From contig CAJQRC010000001.1 of NCBI GenBank assembly GCA_905480645.1, positions 10,437-74,436 of the forward strand: a DNA stretch of 64,000 nt. Direction: 5' to 3'. The notes beneath the pieces are model-generated. The model ran no database searches, had not been told where the DNA came from, and saw nothing but the letters and a program-made list of their open reading frames with translations. Of this stretch, positions 4,609-12,076 are shown piece after piece (the first letter of the stretch is position 1; every line of letters starts with the position of its first letter). The position numbers and the translations under genes were made by a program. The stretch comes from an uncultured Tateyamaria sp. (GTDB taxonomy: Bacteria; Pseudomonadota; Alphaproteobacteria; Rhodobacterales; Rhodobacteraceae).

Positions 4609-5178
4609 CTAAAAAACGTTTAAACCACTGCCTTTTTGCGCTGCTACTTTCAATAGAGTAAACACATATTGTGCATGACTCCTAAAACAAATAACATGTA
4701 CAACCTCATCAGCCGGCATCCAAAATGCCGCGGAAACTTGTGCCAATCGGCTCCTTCGGAACATACCATTCTGAAAAGCTTTAGGACTAATATCAACTGG
4801 TGCTAACTTAGCGATGACATCGCGCGCCATTGACCCAGACACACAAAAAATTGTTCGAGCATCAGAGATATCTGCCACAAGGGAGTGAGTTTTTAACAAT
4901 GATTTATTTAATTTAGCAAGGATTATCTCCACTGATGCATAAGGACAGAACAACAGCAATTCATCCGGCGACATCCAACACAATGCATACTCACCAACCT
5001 GATTGATCTCCGCCAAAACAGGTACTTCAAGCTTGGTTACGGCCAAAATCGCTTTTTTTAAAACCTTATCACTAAGGTCTCCGCGCACAGTAACCATTCC
5101 CTGCAACGGCATTTCAGTAACCTTTGCGATACCTTCCGAACGAGTTACTCCACCTAGGGCTGATACTTCATCAGACAT
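4609..5178 (-). CDS. soxG: Sarcosine oxidase subunit gamma
   Basis: Last gene of the sox cluster. I moved the start to ATG 5178 (MSDEVSALGG), which overlaps the soxA stop by a few nt. Size (~189 aa) and position are typical of SoxG. Confidence 0.85.
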   Translation of the reverse strand: MSDEVSALGGVTRSEGIAKVTEMPLQGMVTVRGDLSDKVLKKAILAVTKLEVPVLAEINQVGEYALCWMSPDELLLFCPYASVEIILAKLNKSLLKTHSLVADISDARTIFCVSGSMARDVIAKLAPVDISPKAFQNGMFRRSRLAQVSAAFWMPADEVVHVICFRSHAQYVFTLLKVAAQKGSGLNVF

Positions 5179-8100
5179 TCTGTTTTTCCCCCTCGGGATC
5201 ATAAAACACAGAATTAACAATTTTAGCCTGATAGGTTTTTCCGTCAGTTCCCGGAAAATCAATAATCTGGCCCATTCGATTGGGACCATCTATGACAAGA
5301 CCCATCGCAATCCCTTTATTCAAATTCGGCGAATGATATGATGATGTAACACGCCCTTGCACATTATTTTGTCCATTTGCATTTACGCCCTCAGCAACGG
5401 CATATGCTCCATCAGGCAAAACAGAACCGTCTAAAGTTTCGAGACCAACTAACTGCCATCGTTCTGGATTTGACATGTGGCTTCTAGCATGGGCGCGTTT
5501 GCCTATATAGTCCTCTTTCTTTTTTGATAGTGCCCAATGCAGTCCCAGGTCCTGTGGAATGACTGTCCCATCCGTTTCGTCGCCAATCATAATAAAGCCT
5601 TTTTCAGCCCTTAAAATATGCAAAGCCTCGGTGCCATACGGCATAATGCCCAAGTCTTTACCCGCCTTAATTAATGCATTCCAAAACGTCTGACCTTCAG
5701 AAGACCTTATCACGATTTCAAAACTTAATTCCCCTGAGAATGAAATTCGAAAAATACGCACATCAAATCCGCCCAATAAACCATCTGTCCATTCCATGAA
5801 CTTAAGCGCATCTTTGGATACATCCATACCGCTTAATCGTTCAAGAACTTGACGAGCATTTGGGCCCACCAAAGCGATTTGTGCAAATTGCTCAGTCACA
5901 TTAGCTACATATACATTCCAGTCCCACCATTCAGTTTGAAGCCATTCTTCCATGTGACCATAAATACTCTCTGCACCTCCAGTCGTTGTGTGGCACAAAA
6001 ATGTTTCTTCATTGATCCGAGCAACCACTCCATCGTCAATTAAAAAACCGTTTTCGTTACACATCAGCCCATAGCGACATTTGCCTGATTTTAATGTGCT
6101 CATCACATTGGTGTAGAGCATATCTAAGAACTTACCCGCATCTGGACCCTTCACCAATATTTTTCCTAATGTAGAGGCATCTAATAAACCAACATTTTCT
6201 CGCGTATTTTTGACCTCACGCATTACAGCATCTTGGATACTCTCACTTGGCTGTACGTACGCATAAGGTCGACGCCACTGCCCCACGGGCTCCCAGCTGG
6301 CGCCGTTAGCATCATGCCAATCATGCATGGGTGTTCTTCGGACAGGCTGAAACACTTCACCACGCGCTTCGCCGGCAATGGCACCTAAAGAAATAGGCGT
6401 GTAAGGTGGGCGAAATGTAGTCGTACCAGTCTGCGGAATTGGTTGGTTTAAAGCGTCTGATAAGATAGCCAGACCGTTTATGTTACTCAGCTTTCCTTGG
6501 TCGGTAGCCATGCCAAGTGTAGTGTAGCGTTTTGCATGTTCTACACTTTCAAAGCCTTCCTGCGCAGCCAACTGTACGTCGGTTACCTTCACGTCATTTT
6601 GATAATCGAGCCAAGATTTTGAGCGCAGCGCAAAGTTTGCGCCTTGCGGCATAAGCCAGACAGGCACCATCGGAGCCTCTTCGATGTAGGAGCCTTCCGG
6701 TGCACTGGCTCGTTTGCAAACAAATCCAGCAGCCTCTGCTGCTCCCTGTCCCATAGCGTGCGCGTCACCAATTAATTCCATTAGTCCAAAATGGCCATTA
6801 GCTGAACCAGCGGGACTCACAAAAGCCGTGCCATCAACACCTTTTGGTGCTTTGTCCACATCTGGGCGAAACATAGAGAAATTTTCATCCCAAATTAGTT
6901 TTCCACCACAATGGGACCAGAGATGGACAACGGGAGACCACCCTCCAGACATGGCTACCGTATCACACTCAATTTTTTCAAGCACGGTTCCTCTCCCTGC
7001 TTGTGAACAAACCTCAATAGCCGTTACGCGCTTGCCCCCCAAGACTTTGGATATTGCGTGTCCCATTAAAACACGGATGCCCACAGATTTTGCTTCAGCA
7101 ACCAGTGGACTATCGACAGCCAACATTCGGGCATCCAATATTGCCTGAACCACTAAACCAGATTTTTTAAGTATGATTGCAGTTCGATAAGCATCATCAT
7201 TATTCGTAACAATTACAGTGCGATCACCTACGCCAACACCGTAATTTACAACATAATCTCTCACAGCTGATGCTAACATTACACCGGGAACATCATTCCC
7301 CGAAAAGCTTAATGGACGTTCAATCGCACCAGTTGCCGTTACCACGTGCGACGCACGAATGCGCCACAATCGATGTCGCGGACCAGCATTATCACTCGTG
7401 TGATCGGTTAAACGCTCATATCCAAGAGCATAGCCATGATCGTAGATGCCAGCTCCTGTGGCGCGGTTACGAAGCGTAACGTTCTCTAGACTAGATAATT
7501 CAGTAAGGAGTTTATCCACCACATTATCCACAGGAGACCCATCAACCTCACCACCATCGACCAAAGCGCGCCCACCCCAATGCGCTGATTGTTCTAGTAC
7601 AATTACCCTAGCACCAGATTTTGCGGCTGCCTTAGCCGAATGCAGTCCAGCAATACCGCCCCCAATGACTAGTACATCACAAAACGCATAAAAATGTTCG
7701 TAGGTATCAGCGTCTCGATTTTTCGGCGCCTTACCTAAACCCGCAGCATGCCGGATAAATGGTTCATAAACATACTTCCAAAGAGGTCGTGGATGGATAA
7801 ACATTTTATAATAAAATCCAGCAGGCATGAAACGCGACAGCTTGGAATTAAGTGCGCCTAAATCAAACTCAAGACTGGGCCAATGGTTCTGGCTAGTGGC
7901 CAGAAGACCTTCAAAAAGCTCCGTTGTTGTTGCCCTTTGATTGGGTTCGAAATTTCCTTCAACACCAAGATTGACTAAGGCGTTGGGTTCTTCCACACCC
8001 GCAGCCACAATACCTCGTGGACGGTGATATTTAAACGAACGACCAACCAGAATTTGGCCATTTGCTAAAAGAGCCGAGGCAAGGGTATCACCCTCGTACC

Positions 8101-8185
8101 CTCTAAATTTTTTGCCGTTAAATGTAAAATTCACTGAACGTGCTTTGTTCAAAAGACGCCCATATGCGGAGAGGCGGGCGCTCAT
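5171..8185 (-). CDS. soxA: Sarcosine oxidase subunit alpha
   Basis: Track ORF of 1004 aa. N-terminal 2Fe-2S-like/NAD(FAD) domains (VLVIGGGIAGL) and a C-terminal GcvT-like folate-binding domain. Flanked by soxD and soxG. Confidence 0.95.
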   Translation of the reverse strand: MSARLSAYGRLLNKARSVNFTFNGKKFRGYEGDTLASALLANGQILVGRSFKYHRPRGIVAAGVEEPNALVNLGVEGNFEPNQRATTTELFEGLLATSQNHWPSLEFDLGALNSKLSRFMPAGFYYKMFIHPRPLWKYVYEPFIRHAAGLGKAPKNRDADTYEHFYAFCDVLVIGGGIAGLHSAKAAAKSGARVIVLEQSAHWGGRALVDGGEVDGSPVDNVVDKLLTELSSLENVTLRNRATGAGIYDHGYALGYERLTDHTSDNAGPRHRLWRIRASHVVTATGAIERPLSFSGNDVPGVMLASAVRDYVVNYGVGVGDRTVIVTNNDDAYRTAIILKKSGLVVQAILDARMLAVDSPLVAEAKSVGIRVLMGHAISKVLGGKRVTAIEVCSQAGRGTVLEKIECDTVAMSGGWSPVVHLWSHCGGKLIWDENFSMFRPDVDKAPKGVDGTAFVSPAGSANGHFGLMELIGDAHAMGQGAAEAAGFVCKRASAPEGSYIEEAPMVPVWLMPQGANFALRSKSWLDYQNDVKVTDVQLAAQEGFESVEHAKRYTTLGMATDQGKLSNINGLAILSDALNQPIPQTGTTTFRPPYTPISLGAIAGEARGEVFQPVRRTPMHDWHDANGASWEPVGQWRRPYAYVQPSESIQDAVMREVKNTRENVGLLDASTLGKILVKGPDAGKFLDMLYTNVMSTLKSGKCRYGLMCNENGFLIDDGVVARINEETFLCHTTTGGAESIYGHMEEWLQTEWWDWNVYVANVTEQFAQIALVGPNARQVLERLSGMDVSKDALKFMEWTDGLLGGFDVRIFRISFSGELSFEIVIRSSEGQTFWNALIKAGKDLGIMPYGTEALHILRAEKGFIMIGDETDGTVIPQDLGLHWALSKKKEDYIGKRAHARSHMSNPERWQLVGLETLDGSVLPDGAYAVAEGVNANGQNNVQGRVTSSYHSPNLNKGIAMGLVIDGPNRMGQIIDFPGTDGKTYQAKIVNSVFYDPEGEKQNV

Positions 8186-8258
8186 ATAAAATACACCTTA
8201 GGAGTAGCAAAGGTTTTAGACATCTCAGGCAACGCTAATGTGACGATTGTAAATTGTA

Positions 8259-8588
8259 TCATGGGTAAGTTCTCCAAGACCAACCTGGTCGTTTAGCGCT
8301 GATCTTATCACGCAATTCTTTGGGTGGTTTCACAGTTTGAGCGGAATAAGTTCCAAAAATTTCAAGTGTTGTTGTGCAGCGAGCTGCATGAAACCATTTT
8401 CCACAGCCATAAATATGGCGCCACCTTTCAAAATGCACGCCTTTAGGATTTTCCCTTACGAATAAGTATTCCTGAAAATCTTCGTCAGTGGAGCCAGGAC
8501 CGAAACGCTTAAGATGCGCCTCTCCACCGCTATGAAATTCAGTTTCTTCACTTTTTTGGCCACAGTACGGGCAGGTGAGGATTAGCAT
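8259..8588 (-). CDS. soxD: Sarcosine oxidase subunit delta
   Basis: MLILTCPYCGQKSEETEFHSGGEAHLKRF...FERWRHIYGCGKWFHAARCTTTLEI is the typical SoxD zinc-ribbon-like sequence. The start is taken at ATG 8588. Confidence 0.85.
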   Translation of the reverse strand: MLILTCPYCGQKSEETEFHSGGEAHLKRFGPGSTDEDFQEYLFVRENPKGVHFERWRHIYGCGKWFHAARCTTTLEIFGTYSAQTVKPPKELRDKISAKRPGWSWRTYP

Positions 8589-9370
8589 GAGTAGGCTCCA
8601 ATAAGTGGGGGAGACAGACAGCAAGGCTGCAACATAAAGGCCACAAACCCAATCATTTCGTTATGAGTTGGAACTCGGATTATAAAAAACGATAAAGCCA
8701 AAAAAAGTTTTGCTTTAATTAGAACAAATTTGTTGCGTCGTTTCACGGGGGTATTATTGTAACAATGAAACAGCTCATTGGTGATCGCAACAATTAAACC
8801 TAAATCGCGCGGTTTTTTTATATGATCTCTAAATGATCCAATTTTTTTTTGTAGTGCATTAAGTTTATTGTTCGAGCGGTAAATTTGAGTGAGAGGGAAA
8901 ATCTTATGAGTAAGGAAATGGGCGCTATTTTGGTTTTCGGCGTAATAATCGTTATCGCACTGACGATGTTTGCTTTGGAGCGCCGTGGAGCGGCCAAACG
9001 TAAGGCAGCTCGGGGTGGGCGCGAGATTGACGTAAGCGATTTGATTGCCTTTGGCTCGGCAGCGGGCGATGGCAAAAAAACAGAAGTTCCAAAGAGTTAA
9101 TTCTTCAACAGAAGAAATAATGCGCAGTTTAGTCTTATAAAAGCGCTGATCTGCATAAGGAAAACATGCTGAACCTCGAACATCAAATGCGATAATGCTC
9201 CACCTTTTACTTTTATTATACAATTCGTAGATAATAGCATGAAAAAGTAAAAATTCCAAAGATCTGACAACCACTTTCACGACAAAACTATTATTCAGGA
9301 CAAACACAACAAAACTAATAGTCATAAAAATATACTTAAAAATGCCAAAAATATAATACGACGTCAGCAT
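8582..9370 (-). CDS. Hypothetical 262-aa ORF of unrecognised family filling the soxB-soxD spacer (possible membrane protein; coding status uncertain)
   Basis: Part of track ORF 8582..9418. ATG 9370 lies 1 nt after the soxB TAA (TAAAATG), and its TAA 8584..8582 overlaps the soxD ATG (ATGCTAA). The frame stays open through ~0.78 kb of very AT-rich DNA. Hydrophobic N-terminus YYIFGIFKYIFMTISFVVFVL. No motif I recognise. Confidence 0.4.
   Translation of the reverse strand: MLTSYYIFGIFKYIFMTISFVVFVLNNSFVVKVVVRSLEFLLFHAIIYELYNKSKRWSIIAFDVRGSACFPYADQRFYKTKLRIISSVEELTLWNFCFFAIARCRAKGNQIAYVNLAPTPSCLTFGRSTALQSKHRQCDNDYYAENQNSAHFLTHKIFPLTQIYRSNNKLNALQKKIGSFRDHIKKPRDLGLIVAITNELFHCYNNTPVKRRNKFVLIKAKLFLALSFFIIRVPTHNEMIGFVAFMLQPCCLSPPLIGAYSC
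8906..9100 (+). CDS. Hypothetical 64-aa single-pass membrane protein, antisense to the sox operon
   Basis: ATG 8906 is preceded by GAGAGGGA. Sequence MSKEMGAILVFGVIIVIALTMFALERRGAAKRKAARGGREIDVSDLIAFGSAAGDGKKTEVPKS. By my count 30 of 64 codons start with G, a strong coding-like bias. It sits in the GC-rich core of the insertion. Confidence 0.45.
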   Translation: MSKEMGAILVFGVIIVIALTMFALERRGAAKRKAARGGREIDVSDLIAFGSAAGDGKKTEVPKS

Positions 9371-9371
9371 T

Positions 9372-10616
9372 TTAGTGTGCCACTCCAGCAGCAACACTTT
9401 CATCGATGAACTTTCCAATACGAAAGCGATTTAGTGAAAACTCTTCAGTTAGTGGGGAGTGCCCTTTTGCAATCAGTTCAGCCATAGCCCAACCAGATCC
9501 CGGGATAGCCTTAAAACCTCCAGTACCCCAACCGCAGTTAATGAATACCCCGTCGACAGGTGTCTTTGACAGAATGGGAGAGCGGTCACCGGTAACATCA
9601 ACGATCCCACCCCATTGCCGAAGCATCTTTAAACGCGAAATCATTGGGAATGTCTCAATCAGAGCGCGTACAGTTTCTTCTATGTGATGAAATGATCCAC
9701 GCTGCGTAAAGTTGTTATACCCGTCCGTACCACCGCCAATTACCATTTCGCCTTTATCAGATTGGCTCATATAGCCATGAACCGTGTTAGCCATCACGAC
9801 CACATCCATACAGGGTTTGATTGGTTCACTTACTAAGGCTTGCAAGGAAACAGATTCTAAAGGAAGCCGAAAACCAGCCATATCAGCAAGATGACCCGAA
9901 TGACCTGCAACAACCATTCCTAACTTTTCACAATCAATTGCGCCTCTGTTTGTATCAACGCCCACGACCATACTGCCTTGCCGACGTACTGCTGTCACTT
10001 CGCACTGCTGAATAATATCCATACCCATAGCGGAACATGCGCGAGCATAGCCCCAAGCGACAGCATCATGACGCGCCGTACCACCACGTGCCTGCCATAA
10101 ACCGCCTAAAACAGGATAACGAGATCCATTAATATCAATAATCGGCACCAACTCCTTAACCTGTTCAGGCCTAATGAATTTGGTCTTTACACCTTGTAAT
10201 GCATTGGCATGAGCAGTGCGCTGATAGCCTCGGACTTCGTGTTGGGTTTGGGCCAACATGATGACGCCTCGTGGACTAAACATTACGTTGTAATTTAAAT
10301 CTTGGCTCATCGTTTCATATAATGAACGGGATTTTTCATAGAGTGCCGCAGATGGATCTTGAAGATAATTTGACCTAATAATGGTTGTATTACGGCCTGT
10401 ATTGCCCCCACCAAGCCAACCTTTTTCAAGGATAGCTACGTTTGTAATGCCAAATCTCTTGCCAAGGTAATAAGCTGTAGCAAGGCCATGGCCACCTGCT
10501 CCAACAATAATTACTTCATATTTTGATTTTTGTTCGGGTGATCGCCATGCACGCTCCCATCCAGTATGATGACGTAATGCCTCACGGGCAATAGCAAAGG
10601 CTGAGTAGCGTTTCAT
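9372..10616 (-). CDS. soxB: Sarcosine oxidase subunit beta
   Basis: Track ORF of 414 aa with FAD fold IIVGAGGHGLATAYYL and strong overall SoxB character. First gene of the cluster. Confidence 0.95.
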   Translation of the reverse strand: MKRYSAFAIAREALRHHTGWERAWRSPEQKSKYEVIIVGAGGHGLATAYYLGKRFGITNVAILEKGWLGGGNTGRNTTIIRSNYLQDPSAALYEKSRSLYETMSQDLNYNVMFSPRGVIMLAQTQHEVRGYQRTAHANALQGVKTKFIRPEQVKELVPIIDINGSRYPVLGGLWQARGGTARHDAVAWGYARACSAMGMDIIQQCEVTAVRRQGSMVVGVDTNRGAIDCEKLGMVVAGHSGHLADMAGFRLPLESVSLQALVSEPIKPCMDVVVMANTVHGYMSQSDKGEMVIGGGTDGYNNFTQRGSFHHIEETVRALIETFPMISRLKMLRQWGGIVDVTGDRSPILSKTPVDGVFINCGWGTGGFKAIPGSGWAMAELIAKGHSPLTEEFSLNRFRIGKFIDESVAAGVAH

Positions 10617-10840
10617 TAGTATTTATCCGGCACTGGAATCAACAGTTCTTACACTTGCAGTTTAATGACCTTTTGAACAAACAAAAAGGATTGCGATGGC
10701 GCCTCTTTTATAAGGTTTTGCGACACGTTTTCATTTGACTATATTCCATTTTATTATTCACCTTAATAATGACTTATATGCGTTACACGGTTTCCCCTCT
10801 TTTACATTCCATCCACAAGAGTTACGTCAATTAACAATAC

Positions 10841-12076
10841 ATGAGTAGGAAAAAAATGCTGTTTTGGGCTGTAACCGCTGTTCTTACACTTATCGTTGTT
10901 GGAACCTTATCAAATACATTGCTGCGAGGCCGCAGCAATCTTCGCCCATCTGCGGCCTATGATCTAGACGTTTATCGCGATCAGTTAAAAGAAGTGGATC
11001 GCGATTTAGCGCGCGGTATACTAGCCGAAGCAGACGCGGAGCGCGTACGAATAGAAGTATCTCGACGTATCTTATCAGCCGATACCTCCCTTCGCAACGA
11101 AACGTCAACGCTGAAATGCCATAGCGGTCCAATCGCAGCAACCATGCTATCTCTTTCAATTCTAGCAGGCTCCTATTCAATTTACATGCATCTCGGGGCA
11201 CCAGGCTATGGCGACCTTGCACTAACCGATCGTATTAAGTTAGCGGAAGAATTACGCGCGAAACGACCAAGGCAGCAAACGGCAGAGGTTGGTTCGGCAG
11301 CCAAATTGCCGGTGGGTCCACCAATATCACCCGATTATGTCACTTTAGTTCAGAAATTGCGAGAAACAGTAGGGAATCGTCCAAATGATCTACAGGGACA
11401 AATATTGCTGGTCCAATCTGAAGCACAGTTGGGTAATTTTGTAGCTGCTCATGTCGCTCAGGCACGAGTTATTGAACTGAAAAAATGGACAGCAACAGCA
11501 ACAGATTACTCTGAATATGCTGACCTGCTAATTCTGGCAGCTGGTGGGTATGTTTCTCCAGAGGCAGAAACAGTTCTTGAACAAGCGCTGAAAATGGACC
11601 CCTCGAACGGTACAGCAGGTTACTACTTCGGCTTAATGATGGCACAAACTGGACGGCCAGATACAGCTCTACGAATTTGGGATCAATTGTTGCGTACCAG
11701 TTCACAAAACTCACCTTGGGTATCTCCAATTGAATTGCAAATTGATGAAATAGCAGTCCGCGCAGGCGTGAACTATTCGCGCCCAGCAGTACCTATCGAA
11801 AGCGGCCCATCTGCAGCAGCCATAGAAGCTGCAAGCGAAATGTCACCCACCGAGCGACTGGAAATGATCCAAGGTATGGTTTCAGGTCTCAGTGAAAGGT
11901 TAGCAAATGACGGCGGTCCAGTTGAAGATTGGGCGCGTTTGATTTCCTCTCTTGCAGTATTGGGTCAAATGGACGAAGCACGAACAGTTTTTGAGAAGGC
12001 CCAGCTTGCATTTAAAGAAGATCTGCCCGCCATCGATATCTTAAATAATACTGCAAGTCAGGTTGGCCTACGATGA
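10841..12076 (+). CDS. ccmI: c-type cytochrome biogenesis protein CcmI/CycH (TPR)
   Basis: N-terminal TM helix, then YRDQLKEVDRDLARGILAEADAERVRIEVSRRIL and a TPR-like C-terminal half. An alternative start exists at ATG 10856. Confidence 0.8.
   Translation: MSRKKMLFWAVTAVLTLIVVGTLSNTLLRGRSNLRPSAAYDLDVYRDQLKEVDRDLARGILAEADAERVRIEVSRRILSADTSLRNETSTLKCHSGPIAATMLSLSILAGSYSIYMHLGAPGYGDLALTDRIKLAEELRAKRPRQQTAEVGSAAKLPVGPPISPDYVTLVQKLRETVGNRPNDLQGQILLVQSEAQLGNFVAAHVAQARVIELKKWTATATDYSEYADLLILAAGGYVSPEAETVLEQALKMDPSNGTAGYYFGLMMAQTGRPDTALRIWDQLLRTSSQNSPWVSPIELQIDEIAVRAGVNYSRPAVPIESGPSAAAIEAASEMSPTERLEMIQGMVSGLSERLANDGGPVEDWARLISSLAVLGQMDEARTVFEKAQLAFKEDLPAIDILNNTASQVGLR

Follow-up and report, generated by a model that had tools for sequence, protein, structure and literature searches.

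Here we describe a reading frame that stays open across the whole of a 783-nucleotide (nt) spacer between the sarcosine oxidase genes soxB and soxD in an uncultured Tateyamaria sp. (Rhodobacteraceae), and a frame in the same register in the sox operons of other roseobacters. The DNA analysed, referred to as the window, is a 64,000-nt stretch of GenBank assembly GCA_905480645.1 (contig CAJQRC010000001.1, positions 10,437 to 74,436); all positions are those of the window, and the sox genes lie on its minus strand. The frame in question, open reading frame 262 (ORF262; 8582..9370, minus strand), comprises 262 sense codons and a stop. It is probably a 'bridge' or relay ORF, seemingly held open by selection for being translated and not for its product. 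On balance, we also favour a wider picture in which the roseobacter soxB–soxD junction is an insertion hot spot lying under a selected, sequence-free ribosome-relay ORF of up to ~390 codons, or under a chain of ORFs. Only the register, the start at the soxB stop and the stop at the soxD start would be conserved in such a relay. It would overlap autonomous small membrane-protein genes that lie either antisense or in another sense frame, and the synonymous sites of these genes appear to be shaped so as to keep it open. In other words, this might be coding DNA selected purely for translation.

The open frame between soxB and soxD

The soxB gene (beta subunit; 9372..10616, minus strand; from the ORF list, with PF01266, DAO, at E=3.7e-66) ends in a TAA at 9374-9372. 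The soxD gene (delta subunit; 8259..8588, minus strand; PF04267, E=1.4e-29) starts with an ATG at 8588. The spacer of ~0.78 kb reported in the initial annotation of this DNA, together with its coordinates, is thereby confirmed. One minus-strand frame is open throughout, running for 262 codons from the ATG at 9370, or for 278 from a TTG at 9418, to the TAA at 8584-8582; the remaining five frames of the spacer contain 9-21 stops each. At the upstream junction, TAAAATG (9368..9374, minus strand), a single nucleotide separates the soxB stop from the bridge ATG (spacing +1). At the downstream junction, ATGCTAA (8582..8588, minus strand), the bridge TAA falls within soxD codons 2-3, 4 nt past the soxD ATG (8588-8586), and gives a 7-nt overlap with the soxD start. 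According to a recent review, coupling in Escherichia coli is best at stop–start spacings of -4 to +3, and larger overlaps are less efficient (PMC12548453); the spacing at the soxB stop is inside this range. The geometry of coupled genes had already been recognised at both ends of the frame, and it recurs across the clade. A motif search further revealed that the bridge ORF begins with ATGCTGACG (9362-9370), a motif shared with soxD starts.

Over the whole frame 13.7 stops are expected and none is observed, and not one of 20,000 dinucleotide-preserving shuffles was free of stops. When the regions are taken separately, the same shuffles give probabilities of zero stops of 0.0013 for positions 9370-9101, 0.0025 for 8905-8585 and 0.12 for the middle. 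The earlier suggestion that such a frame would be unlikely to arise by chance is borne out, and chance is excluded as the explanation of its openness.

A common register in roseobacter sox operons

The SoxB protein of the window is 82-90% identical to SoxB of 80 Rhodobacterales genomes. We compared the soxB–soxD spacer with those of 75 Rhodobacterales genomes and three closer metagenomic contigs, using tblastx and phmmer. The initial annotation took it that soxD follows soxB directly. This is true of the outgroups on an Alisedimentitalea plasmid (11 nt) and in Ralstonia (24 nt), though the gap in S. meliloti is 114 nt. The orthologous roseobacter operon departs from this arrangement: across 75 loci the two genes are 11 to 1177 nt apart, with 783 nt in the window.

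To describe the frame in all of these loci, we used a register, R, set by the soxD ATG: its codons begin 2 nt before the A of that ATG, and its stop thus lies in soxD codons 2-3. Gaps of 200 nt or more (205-1177 nt) are present in 65 loci; R is stop-free in 57 of these, and the gap length is 1 mod 3 in 56 of the 65. The 57 open loci hold no stop in 12,159 codons of R, against 335 and 342 stops in the other two sense frames and 2.7 per 100 codons on the antisense strand. Most of these spacers cannot be aligned with one another: 58 loci yielded 54 clusters (>50% blastn coverage), and the frame is open in 46 of the 54. ORF262 has the same phase relative to soxD as the frames of its relatives, with a start shifted by one base (TAAAATG, gap 0 mod 3), as in locus L058.

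The ends of the frame are just as regular. Of the 69 open loci whose gap is 40 nt or longer, 58 have a start codon at an offset of 0-3 nt, counted from the final base of the soxB stop (TGATG in 46, TAATG in 7). In 61 of the 69 the frame ends inside soxD codons 2-3 (ATGCTGA 47, ATGCTAA 8, ATGTTGA 5 and ATGCTAG 1). The same start and stop geometry is seen even where the gap is only 52-148 nt, in the form of mini-ORFs of 17-50 codons. Where R is interrupted, the spacer is often crossed stepwise: at least four of the eight non-open loci, as well as two partial contigs, are chains of ORFs with overlapping or near-abutting stop and start codons. The joints are ATGnnTGA in L020, ATGA in L059 and ..TGCTGA over ATGCTGA in L086 and L087; in L024 and L050 the stops lie 2-7 nt from the following ATG. 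That the frame is open from the very soxB stop, and not merely as a short ORF before soxD, argues for continuous ribosome coverage or a relay, and so does the tendency of the exceptions to be ORF chains. The second-link ORFs of L086 (sox-oriented position 693) and L087 (sox-oriented position 905) start with ATGCTGATC and ATGCTGAAA, respectively; like ATGCTGACG, these are instances of the soxD-start motif ATGCTRAYC, as if the start junction had been duplicated upon DNA insertion.

The content of the frame, by contrast with its register, seems to be free. The ratio of non-synonymous to synonymous substitution rates (dN/dS) in R is 1.0-1.5 or higher in the pairs that can be aligned, and insertions and deletions in R are multiples of three (e.g. 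42; 12; 6, 3, 9, 3 and 69; 153, 9, 6, 3, 3 and 3). A comparison of this junction across relatives had been proposed with the initial annotation as a check on the frame; the frame is indeed kept open, but without constraint on the amino acids. As far as sequence comparison goes, conservation across the clade extends to the frame, its register and the geometry of its two ends, but not to sequence or length.

Some spacers encode proteins of a more ordinary appearance. A family that we call E (~150-190 amino acids (aa), two to three hydrophobic helices, C-terminal TLQxG[FY]G) is found directly after soxB and in the bridge register in six loci (L086, sox-oriented 253-699, L079, L026, L020, L055 and L024), and its only Pfam match, to DUF3487, is sub-threshold (E=0.001). 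Real-looking proteins in the bridge frame also occur in L036 (241 aa), L076 (113 aa) and L078 (245 aa), the last with a weak match to a glycosyltransferase DXD region (PF04488, E=0.003). An ORF in another frame of L050 and L059 is presumably TfoX-like, judged by eye and not checked against Pfam. The variety of proteins in the L036, L076, L078 and L050/L059 spacers suggests that the junction acquires diverse genes. The L070 spacer, which includes a masked or N segment and, in the bridge frame, a long repeat that codes for proline, is uninformative, because at a GC content of 0.75 all six of its frames are stop-free.

Gene B, other embedded genes and the bridge peptide

Alignment of the window spacer to those of relatives is limited to positions ~8876-9094, and the best-conserved translation there, at 76-84% amino acid identity, is that of the plus strand. 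It corresponds to a gene, here called B (8906..9100, plus strand), which was overlooked in the initial annotation. Gene B lies antisense to the sox operon and to ORF262 and encodes a 64-aa single-pass membrane protein (MSKEMGAILVFG...ERRGAAKRKAARGGREIDVSDLIAFGSAAG; complete product MSKEMGAILVFGVIIVIALTMFALERRGAAKRKAARGGREIDVSDLIAFGSAAGDGKKTEVPKS). A GAGGG at 8893..8897 (plus strand), 8 nt upstream of its ATG, is Shine-Dalgarno-like in appearance and might serve as its ribosome-binding site. Homologues make up 165 clusters of 60-65-aa 'hypothetical proteins' in Tateyamaria, Roseobacter, Ascidiaceihabitans and Sulfitobacter. The family is characterised by a length of ~60-65 aa, an N-terminal transmembrane helix and the motif ERRG..RKAARGGREIDVS.LIAFGSAAG, all of which the window protein possesses, and 21 columns are invariant among 28 aligned members. 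AlphaFold2 (AF2), supplied with the alignment, predicts helices at residues 3-35 and 44-54 with a predicted local distance difference test score (pLDDT) of 83. We found no relative of gene B in Pfam, in NCBIfam or, with a B profile, in PDB, and only 21 representatives among 1.84 billion proteins.

In the ungapped 48-codon core of 11 loci, substitutions at gene B codon positions 1, 2 and 3 number 638, 522 and 1307; therefore B is the frame under purifying selection. Over 8906-9100 ORF262 is the codon-for-codon antisense of gene B, so that position 3 of B is position 1 of ORF262. To judge from these comparisons, the spacer contains no conserved coding sequence other than gene B, which lies antisense between soxB and soxD in every sox-containing locus examined. 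It occupies the same position in all four genera, and the content of the spacer is thus no recent foreign insert. Cultured relatives that share this layout include Tateyamaria omphalii DP5N21-5, Roseobacter ponti, an Ascidiaceihabitans sp. and Sulfitobacter sabulilitoris. The GC content of gene B is 0.51, against ~0.45 for the genome and 0.31-0.37 for the flanks. Its closest relatives (83-89% protein identity) reside on contigs of GC 0.59-0.63, so that the low GC content of this lineage looks derived, and the unconstrained flanks look to have drifted furthest toward AT.

These flanks are the left one (9101..9367, minus strand; GC 0.31, 43% T on the sense strand), which changes at a roughly neutral rate, and the right one (8589..8905, minus strand; GC 0.37), which is without conservation. 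Both are stop-free in the bridge frame. Neither aligns to the spacer of any relative, even of the closest (L085-L087); only the gene B region does. The right flank must also house the promoter of gene B on the plus strand. A promoter consensus scan returned two promoter-like sites against 2.7 expected, not above shuffles, and a terminator scan returned none; the promoter and terminator of gene B were thus not located.

What, then, of the peptide encoded by ORF262? Among 5.8 billion proteins it has no relatives outside its own species, where it forms a single cluster at 99% identity, and it matches no family in Pfam or NCBIfam. AF2 yields a mean pLDDT of 36.8, a predicted template modelling score of 0.23 and no confident fold, which is weak evidence given the single-sequence input; it does draw helices at the hydrophobic N- and C-terminal segments. 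The composition (rich in L, F, I, S, K, A and N; Cys 3.4%) is roughly as originally described, but hydrophobicity and an abundance of Phe, Ile and Leu follow from a sense strand of 43% T and 26% A. Relative to a 97% haplotype (L088), divergence is 0.7% in soxB, 0.9% in soxD, 0 of 195 nt in the core (8906-9100) and 3.7% in the left flank (9101-9371). The 10 substitutions in these 271 nt are a small number, and 7 of them are non-synonymous in ORF262; change in the left flank appears to be at about the level of unconstrained sequence, close to the synonymous or neutral rate. A metagenome scan with ORF262 recovered only two near-identical loci (97-98%), too few for a robust population-level dN/dS.

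These data bear directly on the strongest of the rival explanations, that ORF262 is a functional lineage-specific membrane protein, orphan or recently acquired, that is translationally coupled into the sox operon. Such a protein would account for an open, non-random frame of coupled geometry and for the hydrophobic termini. It would fit the retention of the frame in all 273-aa population variants and the presence of family E and of the L036, L076 and L078 proteins at the same position and in the same register elsewhere. However, no relationship between ORF262 and family E could be detected, and neither the database searches nor the structure prediction lend it an identity. The region shared across genera is conserved in the opposite-strand frame (76-84%) and not in that of ORF262 (40-50%), with substitutions peaking at ORF262 codon position 1. 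Together with the mostly non-synonymous changes in the left flank and the high dN/dS in relatives, this gives no sign of purifying selection on the amino acids of ORF262. We therefore regard a functional protein as unlikely. The original proposal of a foreign, uncharacterised membrane protein, or the fossil of one, loses its footing on the same evidence, and we infer that the peptide itself is functionless.

Gene B is not the only gene embedded under the bridge frame. The spacers of the compared loci hold four families (A-D) of small single-helix proteins. Families A and C are on the sense strand and always in the soxD phase, while B and D are antisense and always codon-for-codon opposite R. 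All four show an excess of third-position substitutions in their own frames, although the protein-guided alignments bias this result in their favour. The genes of families A and C contain no R-frame stops, against 8.3 per family expected from within-gene permutation of synonymous codons (products of P(0) 3e-6 and 7e-6). For the antisense families B and D this test is uninformative by construction, because there are no TTA, CTA or TCA codons to permute. Gene B of the window is without TTA, CTA and TCA codons (P=0.044), although in the sox genes 32% of Leu codons are TTA and 24% of Ser codons are TCA. The absence of stops in A and C and the codon avoidance in gene B suggest that the openness of R is enforced even inside real genes. 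In other words, in the sequences at hand the embedded genes avoid making stops in the bridge frame. We found no remnants of the other spacer genes of relatives in the window flanks; one match to gene C (40 aa, 40%) that lies in the soxD frame contains stops and was judged not significant.

A natural experiment is provided by Roseobacter fucihabitans (L090, CP143423.1, 2510527-2516718), in which the same neighbourhood (sodB ... cycH, ruvX) is present and genes B and C are intact, but soxBDAG is absent. Here no continuous frame exists: each frame has 13-19 stops over 1548 nt, and the B-local and C-local frames, each still open, are out of phase. This fits a constraint that exists only where sox genes need bridging. 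An IS110-family transposase adjoins sodB in this genome.

The antisense arrangement raises the possibility that the long ORF is a mere shadow of gene B, that is, a gene caller's artefact favoured by length within ordinary AT-rich intergenic DNA. ORF262 is exactly codon-for-codon opposite to B between 8906 and 9100, the phase least prone to stops, so that its amino acid 'conservation' there is a by-product of B, and its product looks like junk. The callers used on the AT-rich source contigs (L001-L004) and on an NCBI metagenome-assembled genome do choose a 273-aa hypothetical protein (8582..9402 equivalent) and leave out gene B, whereas on GC-rich relatives they annotate B together with the small genes of the sense strand, but not a long ORF. 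Yet the shadow extends over 65 of the 262 codons only. A shadow ORF stops with the real gene, whereas ORF262 runs on for 90 and 107 codons through AT-rich DNA, where freedom from stops is itself improbable, and matching stop-free frames are present in relatives without gene B. Nor would a shadow explain the recurrence of one open register, of lengths that are 1 mod 3 and of starts on the soxB stop, or the decay of the frame where the sox genes are absent. We consider this explanation very improbable.

Downstream of soxD follow soxA (alpha subunit; 5171..8185, minus strand; from the ORF list and from the Pfam families Fer2_4/SO_alpha_A3/GCV_T of the gene called on the source contig) and soxG (gamma subunit; 4609..5178, minus strand; PF04268, mapped back from the called gene at 10439-11008 of source contig L001), the last gene of the operon. 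The beta (DAO), delta, alpha and gamma subunit genes are thus in soxBDAG order on one strand, as identified by Pfam on window ORFs and on genes called on the source contigs. A Shine-Dalgarno sequence, GGAG (8596..8599, minus strand), read from the sequence 7 nt upstream of the soxD ATG, is in the same place in most relatives. The spacer was said to be AT-rich compared with the flanking sox genes, and it has a GC content of 0.38 against 0.45 for the locus; in 200-nt windows GC falls to 0.31-0.33 at 8700-8899 and 9200-9399 and reaches 0.50 in the middle (8900-9099). Misassembly, which had been raised as a concern, is excluded, since independent samples yielded at least 23 contigs with this spacer, the longest of 1.68 Mb, and Joint Genome Institute contigs carry it at 97-98% identity. 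An Rfam scan of 8000-10000 at E<=1 gave no match, and a repeat search of 8400-9600 gave short, chance-level repeats only; the terminal repeats expected of a mobile element, whether inverted or direct, were not found. No second copy of the spacer was found within the 64-kb window.

The soxD–soxA junction (8186-8258, 73 nt, in the window) consists of either an ATGA overlap or a gap of 42-100 nt in L005-L084, apart from L082, where the gap is 786 nt with 13, 7 and 1 stops in the three sense frames. We considered this junction as a second case of bridging and rejected it: the usual gaps are too short to tell, and the single long one is not fully open.

A proposed ribosome relay and its precedents

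We propose a mechanism by which a frame without a constrained product could be maintained. Ribosomes that end soxB at its TAA would restart at the ATG 1 nt downstream and read through all 783 nt, including the antisense side of gene B. They would stop at the TAA 4 nt inside soxD, and the same ribosomes, or fresh ones on messenger RNA (mRNA) that the former had unfolded, would begin soxD at the adjacent ATG with its GGAG. Such a relay might tie synthesis of the delta subunit to that of the beta subunit in equimolar amounts. It might also keep the operon mRNA covered by ribosomes, leaving no long untranslated stretch open to Rho-dependent polarity or to RNases, and this coverage would be kept although the junction is a hot spot for inserted small membrane-protein genes. 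The frame is presumably translated, then, and the benefit would consist in coupling, in protection from polarity or in both.

Recoding would be a different use of the same geometry: the bridge product could be joined to SoxD by a -1 shift at ..TGC TGA.., or SoxB could be lengthened by a shift at its own stop codon, and the spacer would become a variable subunit extension. The frame always ends at a stop embedded in ATGCTGA/ATGCTAA, ribosomes slipping by -1 after TGC would land in the soxD frame, and the bridge frame is usually open at least 28 nt further upstream, into soxB; but the addition of 17 to ~390 unconserved residues to a 109-aa zinc-binding subunit is implausible, the ATG so commonly present at the soxB stop points to separate initiation, and neither a slippery heptamer nor a stimulatory structure was seen, although no search was made for either, so that we give recoding hardly any credence.

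Several observations weigh against the ribosome relay. Eight of the 65 loci lack a single continuous frame, and in 11 of the 69 open loci a start codon is lacking within 3 nt of the soxB stop, as in L005 (first ATG at +174), L033, L078, L080 and L082. The loci are phylogenetically related, so that the counts of open loci overstate their independence, though most spacers are unalignable. The sox-loss natural experiment amounts to one genome. Since soxD has a GGAG of its own, coupling is not obviously required, and the 7-nt stop/start overlap at soxD exceeds the E. coli optimum (PMC12548453). Translation across a region that is also transcribed in the opposite direction for gene B would bring the two processes into conflict. 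Finally, re-initiation coupling, protection from Rho polarity and mRNA stabilisation are not separable by sequence.

The relay has precedents in part. The overlapping stop and start codons of trpE and trpD are an example of classical coupling, and pufK, upstream of pufB in Rhodobacter, is a leader ORF that delivers ribosomes. At the soxB stop, the sequences present in 53 of 69 loci (TGATG or TAATG) and in the window (TAAAATG) are of the classical TGATG/ATGA kind and within the -4 to +3 range (PMC12548453). However, soxB and soxD are not adjacent, so that a relay through the intervening ORF would be needed, and the downstream junction has a larger overlap. Short ORFs whose sole role is to deliver ribosomes to a coupled gene are described in a 2025 review (PMC12548453). 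The bridge ORF is similar to these in that its function would be to be translated, its peptide would be unimportant and its stop lies at or over the downstream start. Such leaders differ in having a few to a few tens of codons and in being at the 5' end of the transcript, whereas the bridge is internal, coupled to a preceding gene and an order of magnitude longer.

As summarised in the same review after Supply et al. (1997), mycobacterial interspersed repetitive units (MIRUs) are intercistronic in operons and insert at start codons; the gene is then coupled to an ORF that the element carries, and insertion barely affects downstream expression (PMC12548453). In both cases extra DNA sits between operon genes and an ORF is joined to the stop and start of the two flanking genes. 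MIRUs, on that account, are short, repeated, apparently mobile and possess a consensus. By contrast, the sox spacer is single-copy in the 64-kb window, spans 52-1177 nt and is without terminal repeats, and between genera the spacers are unalignable save for the embedded small genes and have no consensus. The sox bridge ORF also reaches ~390 codons, is coupled at both ends and shares its DNA with autonomous genes, both in a different frame and on the opposite strand. By analogy, MIRU-type or ribosome-delivering coupled ORFs appear to be the closest known kind, of which the soxB–soxD bridge ORF would be a far longer form. A literature search for an ORF between soxB and soxD found nothing relevant, its sole match being an unrelated Bacillus thuringiensis sox locus.

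For annotation, the consequence is that gene callers give AT-rich genomes a junk 273-aa 'hypothetical protein' and overlook the frame in GC-rich ones, and here a real 64-aa gene escapes them as well. If the relay is real, selection could hold hundreds of codons open without constraint on the encoded sequence, in order to keep ribosomes moving between subunit genes, and translational coupling would extend from adjacent genes to relays across kilobase-scale insertions. The junction would then be a natural system in which to separate re-initiation, Rho polarity and mRNA protection. It would likewise be a system for the study of three-layer overlapping coding and, possibly, of de novo gene birth: an always-translated frame might act as a cradle for new proteins, and in some genomes real-looking proteins are found in the same register. 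At the same time, four uncharacterised families of small membrane proteins (A-D) are now linked to the sarcosine oxidase operon of abundant marine bacteria.

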